Sequence record: PQ529420 | DNA: 64,000 bases | Direction: 5' to 3' (one strand) | Source of the DNA: Escherichia phage Eryne | Shown here: positions 22,747-23,463 of the stretch, in pieces | Numbering within the stretch: the first letter of the stretch is position 1 | Layout of the letters: every line of letters begins with the position of its first letter | Position numbers and translations under genes: made by a program | The notes under the pieces: model-generated | Databases searched by the model: none | Seen by the model: only the letters and a program-made list of their open reading frames with translations | What the model was told of the DNA's origin: nothing

Positions 22747-23463
22747 TTATTTCAGTTTGTAAACAATTACATTTAAACCTTTGTTCACTAGAGTTTCTTC
22801 GATCATAAGTTTTACAATATTCCAAGAACCTCCAGCCAAACCACAACCAAGCATTGGTAAACCTACAATTTTACCGCCTGAAGATACAACATCGTCTCCC
22901 ATACTATCTAACGCATTGTAGATAGCTTCATAATTCAGGTCACGCTTACCTTCCTCACGACGACTATAACCATATTGTCCATATAAATTATAAATTGTCA
23001 AATTGTTTTCTGTATACTTAGTAAACGTACCTAATTTTTTATAATCACCACGTTTAGTGGCACAATCTGCTTTAAACGCACCAGGCCACTTACTTTTAAT
23101 TTTTGGTGCAATACCACTACCCATAGTGCAAAAACAGTTACAGCAGTGTGCTATAGCGTCTATATCGCCTCTCTCGGCTGCTGCTAAAAGATCACCGTAT
23201 ACCTCAATGATACCTGCTGGATAACTTGTTACAATTTCATCTTCCCAGTACATTTTCTCTACACCACCGATCAGTGCAAAGTTTTGTGTGATGCGATCAT
23301 CAATATAATTAAGACCTGAAACATACACAGCATATTCATCCTGTGCTGTAATGCCTTGCACACGAATTCTTAAGACACCATCTTTATCTGTTGCTACACG
23401 CCCAAAATCTTTTTCTGTAATATTGGTGATAGGATCTCCGAAAGTCATTACTTTATTAGACAT
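22747..23463 (-). CDS. macro-domain-like protein (ADP-ribose binding/processing), putative
   Basis: Start at internal Met (MSNKV) with AAAGGGGA SD; GDIDAIAHCCNC...MGSGIAPKI resembles macro GDIT..DAIVNAAN..GGGV..AI; GLPMLGCGLAGG. Confidence 0.45.
   Translation of the reverse strand: MSNKVMTFGDPITNITEKDFGRVATDKDGVLRIRVQGITAQDEYAVYVSGLNYIDDRITQNFALIGGVEKMYWEDEIVTSYPAGIIEVYGDLLAAAERGDIDAIAHCCNCFCTMGSGIAPKIKSKWPGAFKADCATKRGDYKKLGTFTKYTENNLTIYNLYGQYGYSRREEGKRDLNYEAIYNALDSMGDDVVSSGGKIVGLPMLGCGLAGGSWNIVKLMIEETLVNKGLNVIVYKLK

Follow-up and report, generated by a model that had tools for sequence, protein, structure and literature searches.

The 64,000-nucleotide stretch of DNA analysed here (the window; record PQ529420) stems from Escherichia phage Eryne, a phi92-like Justusliebigvirus (Stephanstirmvirinae), and contains on its minus strand a complete open reading frame (ORF) that the original prediction had placed inside a Ter module as a macro-domain-like protein. 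The ORF was located exactly as claimed, and comparison of the 4.2 kb around it revealed 98.6% identity to Escherichia phage phi92 and to dozens of further Justusliebigvirus genomes. Its C-terminal part proved to be a TARG1-like macrodomain belonging to a widespread phage family, which probably serves in counter-defence, while its proximity to Ter genes is a matter of position. The ORF is composed as follows:

22747..23463, minus strand: complete macro ORF, 238 residues plus TAA stop, counterpart of phi92 gp185
23218..23463, minus strand: N-terminal extension, residues 1-82, a small all-beta domain
22750..23217, minus strand: macrodomain, residues 83-238, of the TARG1-like (ALC1-like) class and the phage Adpp/AdfM (Tk.4) family, PHROG 335

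The reading frame starts with an ATG (23461-23463), 6 nt downstream of a Shine-Dalgarno-like GGGG run, and terminates with a TAA (22747-22749). In RefSeq, phi92 gp185 (YP_009012517) bears the label 'phosphatase' with the note 'potential Tk.4-like', and one related record is already labelled 'putative macrodomain protein'.

A profile search and a structure search, the checks named in the original prediction, both returned the macro fold. The outcome that would have refuted the prediction, a modelled structure without this fold, did not arise. The Pfam family Macro (PF01661) matches residues 106-217 with an E value of 2.1e-7 and 31.3 bits against a gathering score of 22, and phmmer comparison with the chains of the PDB retrieved SCO6735 (5E3B, 3e-15), BT1257 (4e-15), human TARG1 (3e-10) and DarG (9e-4). 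An AlphaFold2 model computed from 77 homologues reached predicted local distance difference test (pLDDT) values above 90 across residues 81-238, and Foldseek ranked TARG1 first among all PDB entries (E 1e-12, template modelling (TM) score 0.90), with BT1257 (0.83), DarG (0.81) and SCO6735 (0.79) as further matches. Altogether 232 PDB matches were obtained at E ≤0.001, and macrodomains make up nearly all of the 50 matches listed. Model and matches display the three-layer alpha/beta/alpha architecture of the macro fold, and the conserved Asn and the two glycine-rich ADP-ribose-binding loops of the Macro superfamily are likewise present. The match to this superfamily is well above chance level, and the C-terminal 156 residues (83-238) are a TARG1-like macrodomain. 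The macro-domain assignment was thus right for the C-terminal two thirds of the protein, but residues 1-82 form a separate domain that had been missed.

The motifs quoted in the original prediction as mirroring the ADP-ribose pocket and the second glycine-rich loop, namely GDIDAIAHCCNC (residues 99-110), MGSGIAPKI (114-122) and GLPMLGCGLAGG (201-212), are true macrodomain loops and lie where such loops are expected. The active-site elements map to the window as follows:

23137..23148, minus strand: H106-C107-C108-N109, equivalent to His24-Val25-Cys26-Asn27 of SCO6735
23104..23124, minus strand: first glycine-rich (substrate/phosphate-binding) loop, M114-G-S-G117-I-A119-P
22975..22977, minus strand: Gln163, equivalent to Gln85 of SCO6735, at the position of TARG1 Lys84 and DarG Lys80; invariant (77/77)
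22828..22848, minus strand: second glycine-rich (diphosphate-binding) loop, G206-C-G208-L-A210-G-G212

Among the 77 homologues, on which all conservation counts rest, no variation occurs at N109, G117, A119, N159, Y161 and Q163, and M114 recurs in 75; G206, G208, L209, A210 and G212 are near-invariant. The cysteines that had been called unusual are indeed present, but they are a family trait, albeit an unevenly conserved one, with C110 found in 76 homologues, C108 in 68, C107 in 62, C112 in 49 and C207 in 43. A zinc or other metal site at these cysteines was considered and rejected, given that C110 alone is near-invariant and the corresponding motif of T4 Tk.4 reads HGCNCFH.

Pairwise HMMER alignment with 5E3B, whose chain numbering equals the native numbering plus 20, equated G206 and G208 with Gly126 and Gly128 of SCO6735. 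In that enzyme Asn27, Gln85 and Gly128 are essential for the removal of thymidine-linked ADP-ribose from DNA, Gln85 sitting where the catalytic lysine of TARG1 (K84) and DarG (K80) is found (PMC9411070), and the conserved macrodomain Asn, here Asn109, is required for activity in SCO6735, DarG and PhiKZ AdfM (PMC9411070, PMC13309987). All three equivalents are present in the window protein as N109, Q163 and G208. Conversely, the alignment revealed that the catalytic Lys84/Asp125 dyad of TARG1 is absent, as Gln163 and Ala210 occupy those two positions; the same Gln163 stands in place of K78 of the PhiKZ enzyme. Because N109, Q163, G206 and G208 map to SCO6735 residues and the TARG1 Lys and Asp are missing, the window protein is, judged by its residues, a TARG1-like macrodomain of the Lys-less SCO6735 type. 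It also resembles SCO6735 and BT1257 in a long basic 'mobile loop' after Q163 (R168, R169, K172, R173).

The macrodomain belongs to PHROG 335 ('phosphatase'; E 6.6e-65), and tblastn with the macro part detected relatives in 2,990 of 50,697 phage records, including T4-like, FelixO1-like, Pakpunavirus, Vequintavirinae, Thalassavirus and jumbo phages. Most of these carriers, among them T4 and the FelixO1-like, Pakpunavirus and Vequintavirinae phages, lack Ter genes. The closest characterised relative is Adpp of Vibrio phage Gary (KNV71_gp137), which is 41% identical over 154 residues, that is, over the whole macrodomain (E 2e-36). Purified Gary Adpp converts ADP-ribose (ADPR)-1''-phosphate to ADPR; as an ADPR-1''-phosphate phosphatase it feeds NARP1, a pathway that reconstitutes nicotinamide adenine dinucleotide (NAD+), and the extended NARP1 pathway depends on it to defeat aRES, a RES-domain defence system (Osterman et al., bioRxiv 10.64898/2026.01.28.702374). 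Both proteins share the motifs H-x-C-N-C-F-C, G-Q and G-C-G-L-A-G-G, and Gary, like the phi92 group, carries Adps and Namat. In contrast, the Gary protein is a single domain of 158 residues encoded between Adps and Namat, whereas the window protein possesses the additional 82-residue N-terminal domain and its gene lies beside PRTase_3, HAD and Ter genes.

T4 Tk.4, likewise in PHROG 335, is 30% identical to the window protein (E 9e-18). The tk.4 gene was the only one to emerge when transposon mutants were screened on a host with DarTG2; its clean knock-out rendered T4 sensitive to DarTG2, and the protein was named AdfM, for anti-DarT factor (HIDEN-SEQ preprint, bioRxiv 10.1101/2025.11.20.689424); the evidence for this role is genetic. 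Tk.4 has Asn and Gln at matching positions but differs in its length of 155 residues, in lacking the N-terminal domain, in a shorter mobile loop and in its genomic context (tk-vs region). As Tk.4 and Adpp also share 35% identity, the window protein, Tk.4 and Adpp constitute one family.

Among solved structures, SCO6735 of Streptomyces coelicolor (5E3B) and BT1257 of Bacteroides (2FG1/2AFC) are the best sequence matches (3-4e-15), and they share the Lys-less active site of the Asn27/Gln85/Gly128 type, although they are bacterial chromosomal proteins of only ~30% identity. SCO6735 removes thymidine-linked ADP-ribose from DNA and gives protection against DarT; its DNA-binding helpers Lys34 and Lys89 correspond to Ser116 and Ser167 in the window protein, where R168 and R169 adjoin Ser167. 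The best structural match remains human TARG1/OARD1, the namesake of a class of macrodomains that reverse thymine- and uracil-linked ADP-ribosylation. PhiKZ gp104, also named AdfM, is a separate DarG-like macrodomain that keeps the catalytic lysine and strips DarT2 marks in vitro (PMC13309987).

The sole PADLOC and NCBIfam match of the window protein is to the macro part of DarG (E ~1e-13). It does not amount to a full-length DarG, since the profile (NCBIfam NF048014, PADLOC DarG) scored 48.9 bits against a cut-off of 250 and was covered at positions 4-147 of 338, leaving out the DarT-binding C-terminal domain. No DarT gene adjoins the macro gene, whose neighbours are PRTase_3 (by Pfam) and a 68-residue membrane-type ORF of PHROG 16065. 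A phage-borne DarTG toxin-antitoxin pair was rejected on these two grounds, and the protein is an orphan antitoxin-like enzyme and not DarG itself.

By analogy with these relatives, we consider a counter-defence role likely for the window protein, namely as a hydrolase that removes the substituent at C1'' of ADP-ribose, with ADPR as the product. The macrodomain would bind ADP-ribose bearing a substituent at C1'' of the distal ribose and hydrolyse the bond at this carbon, setting ADP-ribose free. It would do so with a site of the SCO6735 type, in which Asn109 positions Gln163 with the aid of both glycine loops, instead of the Lys/Asp dyad of TARG1. One candidate substrate is ADPR-1''-phosphate arising from NAD+ cleavage by host RES-domain defence proteins, because this is the substrate of Adpp. 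A second candidate, chosen for the active-site type and the role of T4 Tk.4, is the thymine-linked ADP-ribose that the toxin DarT2 sets on single-stranded phage DNA; the function would be counter-defence on either substrate. Fold, family, active-site residues, distribution and gene context are what the analysis shows, whereas catalytic activity, substrates and cooperation with NARP1 are what we infer, and the earlier suggestion of reversed ADP-ribosylation is in line with the known activities of the family. The parallel suggestion of a ribose-phosphate metabolite holds insofar as ADPR-1''-phosphate is one family substrate, but its source is RES-type NAD+ cleavage by the host and not the neighbouring phosphoribosyltransferase.

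After removal of the phosphate, NARP1 enzymes of the phage could rebuild NAD+ from ADPR. No Adps, NAMPT, Nudix or Sir2 homologues were found within the window; in phi92, however, gp107 ('ribose-phosphate pyrophosphokinase') is 43% identical to Gary Adps, and gp108 ('nicotinamide phosphoribosyl transferase') is 39-45% identical to Namat of Gary and phiMK. The two genes occupy L105:48179-50877 (48.2-50.9 kb), outside the window and ~64 kb from the phi92 macro gene at 114.5 kb. As phi92 encodes both proteins, an Adpp-like supply of ADPR to NARP1 would be feasible although the genes are unlinked. Phi92 also encodes a Sir2-like protein, gp038 (L105:12318-13130, outside the window), so that the phi92 group has several NAD+- or ADP-ribose-related genes scattered over the genome.

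The N-terminal extension is missing from nearly all homologues, which are 150-180 residues long; its only carriers among them are the phi92 group and one 230-residue metagenomic protein (P0002). Its conserved core comprises I12, D19-x-G21-R22, A24 and G29 followed by F62, G67 and M71-x-W73, giving a domain of ~75 residues with the motif D-x-G-R-[IV]-A ... F-x-L-I-G-G-x-x-x-M-[YF]-W-E. A word-indexed protein search with the N-terminal profile returned two short fragments only, and an exhaustive HMMER profile search of 1.84 billion representative proteins was needed to detect 14 relatives. In these, the domain stands alone (P0129), is fused to a MazG-like domain (P0124, P0133 and an ORF at L003:7457-8011) or precedes other phage C-terminal domains (P0123, P0125, P0127, P0132, P0134). 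The ORF at L003:7457-8011 is inserted exactly between the PRTase_3 and macro genes, and the window itself holds a single copy of the domain. It is thus a rare, mobile module shuffled among phage proteins, and we would guess that it serves to direct the enzyme to DNA or to an interacting protein. By eye, a basic 'KPRFxKPRxKP..R' stretch followed by a C-terminal 'Y..G..Y.LKNV' segment was noticed in two window ORFs, 19502-20353 and 28907-29857 (both minus strand; counterparts of gp179 and gp194), and the same features recur in P0123, P0125, P0127, P0132 and P0134. The proteins with these segments may form a paralogous phage-specific domain family.

The PRTase, HAD phosphatase and Ter module of the original prediction were recovered by Pfam as PRTase_3, HAD, TerC, TelA, vWA-TerF and TerD:

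24306..24962, minus strand: HAD-family hydrolase, upstream of PRTase_3
23456..24313, minus strand: PRTase_3, a ComF-like phosphoribosyltransferase (PRTase), upstream neighbour of the macro gene (PF15610, E 5e-41)
21212-22189, minus strand: TerC
18330-19433, minus strand: TelA
16289-17083, minus strand: vWA-TerF
15620-16216, minus strand: TerD

In the direction of transcription, the minus strand carries an AAA ATPase, two small ORFs, HAD, PRTase_3, macro, two small ORFs and TerC, and continues after intervening ORFs with TelA, further intervening ORFs, vWA-TerF, TerD, one ORF and the endolysin. The macro gene is therefore physically adjacent to the PRTase, HAD and Ter genes in one same-strand array. 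The PRTase_3 stop codon and the macro start overlap by 8 nt (ATGTCTAA), the HAD/PRTase_3 junction overlaps by 8 nt as well, and the macro gene is likely co-transcribed with both. Scans for promoters and terminators over 14-27 kb gave counts not above those of shuffled sequence, and hence no claim on operon boundaries is made.

The order HAD, PRTase_3, macro, TerC, TelA, vWA and TerD, with other ORFs in between, is kept in four relatives (L002, L003, L005 and L006; metagenomic relatives, Phapecoctavirus) at a macro identity of 49-66%. All loci with the HAD-PRTase_3-macro order belong to ~150-kb Stephanstirmvirinae-like phages, that is, to a single lineage, while PRTase_3 itself is present in 156 phage records. 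A search with the family hidden Markov model detected no macro gene within ~6-7 kb of the HAD-PRTase_3 pair of Xanthomonas phage XaC1, Rhizobium phage TM30 or Caulobacter phage CcrColossus (none of three lineages). In the Vequintavirinae relatives Henunavirus and Klebsiella phage KP12, the macro protein is 45-47% identical and an endolysin follows a few kb downstream, with no Ter, PRTase or HAD genes nearby. A backbone running from the AAA ATPase to the macro gene and shared with these phages was considered and dropped, as BLASTP supports the macro-then-endolysin order alone, which is a weak hint. In the locus of L006 (Phapecoctavirus), macro and HAD are each 49% identical to their window counterparts, compared with 65% for PRTase, 79% for TelA and 95% for TerC, and the macro protein thus diverges much faster than its Ter neighbours.

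A survey of the 80 best IMG/VR loci of the macro family (L023-L102; macro identity 37-99%; local tblastn within 8 kb) revealed NAMPT-type genes at 29 loci, Adps/PRPP-synthetase-like genes (PRPP, phosphoribosyl pyrophosphate) at 22 and NadM-like Nudix genes at 12. Ter genes were found at five loci and PRTase_3 at four, all of one lineage. In L086, L091 and L092 (~7240-10150), the macro gene is flanked by Adps-like and NAMPT-like genes as in the published NARP1-AP operon, and L030:6403-8435 provides a further example of a macro gene with NAD+ reconstitution genes. NAD+ reconstitution machinery is thus the recurrent genomic partner of the family, a pattern extending into metagenomic phages.

The original prediction had proposed that the macrodomain acts jointly with the PRTase and HAD of the Ter module. 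In such a scheme, the ComF-like PRTase would make a phosphoribosylated nucleotide-like compound, the HAD enzyme would remove a phosphate, and the macrodomain would bind or trim a ribose-phosphate or ADP-ribose-like intermediate or signal destined for TerD, TerC, TelA and vWA. Anantharaman, Iyer and Aravind reportedly described, in 2012, Ter systems with a PRTase/HAD 'nucleoside-like metabolite' module. The three consecutive same-strand genes with their overlapping junctions fit such a scheme, as do the gene order conserved despite strong macro divergence and the extra gene in L003, which joins the same N-terminal domain to a MazG-like nucleotide pyrophosphatase. A nucleoside-like signal has been proposed for Ter systems, those of phages included, but no macrodomain is among the listed components of phage Ter systems with PRTase and HAD (Iyer et al. 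2021, PMC7824862). Shared descent suffices to explain the conserved order within one phage lineage, and the rapid divergence of the macro protein is unlike that of a fixed pathway enzyme. Since none of the three other HAD-PRTase_3 lineages has a macro gene nearby, PRTase_3 accompanies four of 80 macro loci and the Vequintavirinae genes stand without Ter, PRTase or HAD, we judge the link to be positional: it is physically real at this locus but does not recur beyond one phage lineage. The macro gene beside Ter and HAD-PRTase_3 is a lineage-specific juxtaposition and not a sign of Ter-pathway membership. The closest characterised relatives are, moreover, counter-defence enzymes, and we know of no macrodomain that acts on a PRPP-derived mononucleotide. 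A working role in a Ter-associated biosynthetic module is therefore unlikely, and this part of the original prediction was not upheld.

The preferred reading as a counter-defence hydrolase has to accommodate several observations that weigh against it. The characterised relatives are just 30-41% identical, with one substrate tested for each; the macro gene sits in the tight PRTase_3-HAD array described above, and neither in the window nor in phi92 does it lie in or next to an Adps-Namat (NARP1) operon. Neither Adpp nor AdfM possesses anything equivalent to the N-terminal domain, which may redirect the enzyme to another substrate. Alternatively, the macrodomain might reverse protein or RNA ADP-ribosylation as a regulator without countering DarT2 or RES, acting on marks of host ADP-ribosyltransferases, on those of the phage's own Sir2-like enzyme or on O-acetyl-ADP-ribose. 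SCO6735 and TARG1 also strip Glu/Asp-linked ADP-ribose from proteins, TARG1 is an O-acetyl-ADP-ribose deacetylase, TARG1-like enzymes reverse the uracil-linked modification of RNA, and phi92 encodes gp038. However, defence evasion is the role of both phage relatives tested, the macro gene adjoins neither an ADP-ribosyltransferase gene nor a Sir2 gene, and the partner that the family repeatedly meets across lineages is NAD+ reconstitution, which makes a regulatory role likewise improbable. We regard it as very improbable that the protein is a non-catalytic binder of ADP-ribose or an ADPR-derived signal, serving as sponge or sensor while the N-terminal domain provides output or anchoring. Some macrodomains do bind their ligand only, the catalytic Lys and Asp of TARG1 are missing and the extra domain is unexplained, but the three residues required in Lys-less SCO6735 are all retained here and are invariant or nearly so, and Gary Adpp with its matching Asn and Gln is catalytically active.

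A further scenario, which we rate as quite unlikely, is that Stephanstirmvirinae have built a new salvage or signal branch for nucleotides or ADP-ribose, in which ADPR or a similar ribosyl compound, set free by the macrodomain, is then converted by PRTase, HAD and MazG. It is raised because the N-terminal fusion, the tight coupling to PRTase and HAD and the MazG insertion in sister phages may be non-accidental. It would fit the observation that the macro family adjoins phosphoribosyltransferases of two unrelated folds, ComF-type in the phi92-like lineage and NAMPT-type elsewhere. If true, it would tie the Ter system to the NAD+/ADP-ribose arms race and open a first biochemical way into the Ter/PRTase/HAD module, which has long gone unexplained.

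Several further features of the region were recorded. HAD and the ComF-like PRTase_3 are tightly paired, mostly with overlap, as a two-gene cassette that is conserved across at least four unrelated phage lineages, namely Stephanstirmvirinae, the Xanthomonas jumbo phage XaC1, Rhizobium Kleczkowskaviridae (TM30) and Caulobacter Colossusvirus (CcrColossus); outside the window it was located at L018:6333-7816, L019:4540-6055 and L020:6316-7849. No Ter genes are annotated near the cassette in the Xanthomonas, Rhizobium and Caulobacter lineages, and it may work independently of Ter. The 95% identity of TerC (window 21212-22189 versus L006:6719-7741) amid flanks at 49-79% suggests, from sequence comparison, that terC was exchanged recently or is under unusually strong constraint. 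A promoter-like element (TTGACT, 16-nt spacer, TATAGT) was noted 5' of terC (window 22195-22270, minus strand), in the gap that separates terC from the small ORF located downstream of macro. An 8-bp GC-rich hairpin (GCGGAGGA...UCCUCCGC; fold z-score -2.56) comes next, directly ahead of the ribosome-binding site of terC, and terC may be under its own transcriptional or translational control.

The phi92 genome terminus falls inside the window, with position ~56,390 corresponding to phi92 nucleotide 1 (direct terminal repeat region), window ~56390-64000 lying beyond it and the window end aligning to phi92 4.7-6.2 kb. Because the window crosses this terminus, the source record is either permuted with respect to phi92 or was assembled as a circle. 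The anaerobic ribonucleotide reductase gene nrdD is a single unbroken ORF of 599 residues in the window (27018-28817, minus strand), while the phi92 reference (L001:15018-17096) gives two pieces joined as 'spliced variant' with a gap of ~246 nt; the intervening sequence of phi92 nrdD is therefore missing from the source phage.

The identity of the protein as a macrodomain was already available in public annotation, and the functions of the family were published in 2025-2026. New are the recognition of the phi92-group protein as an Adpp/AdfM member with an active site of the SCO6735 type, the evidence that speaks against its belonging to the Ter module, the account of the mobile N-terminal beta domain and the finding of an Adpp-like gene unlinked from NARP1 in the phi92 lineage. 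For studies of Ter systems, these results advise caution, as the macro gene should not be read as a Ter component. The family to which it belongs is recognised for phage counter-defence enzymes directed against RES-type NAD+ cleavage and DarTG2, and the placement of the phi92-group protein within it predicts which bacterial defences these broad-host-range, therapy-relevant coliphages would evade.

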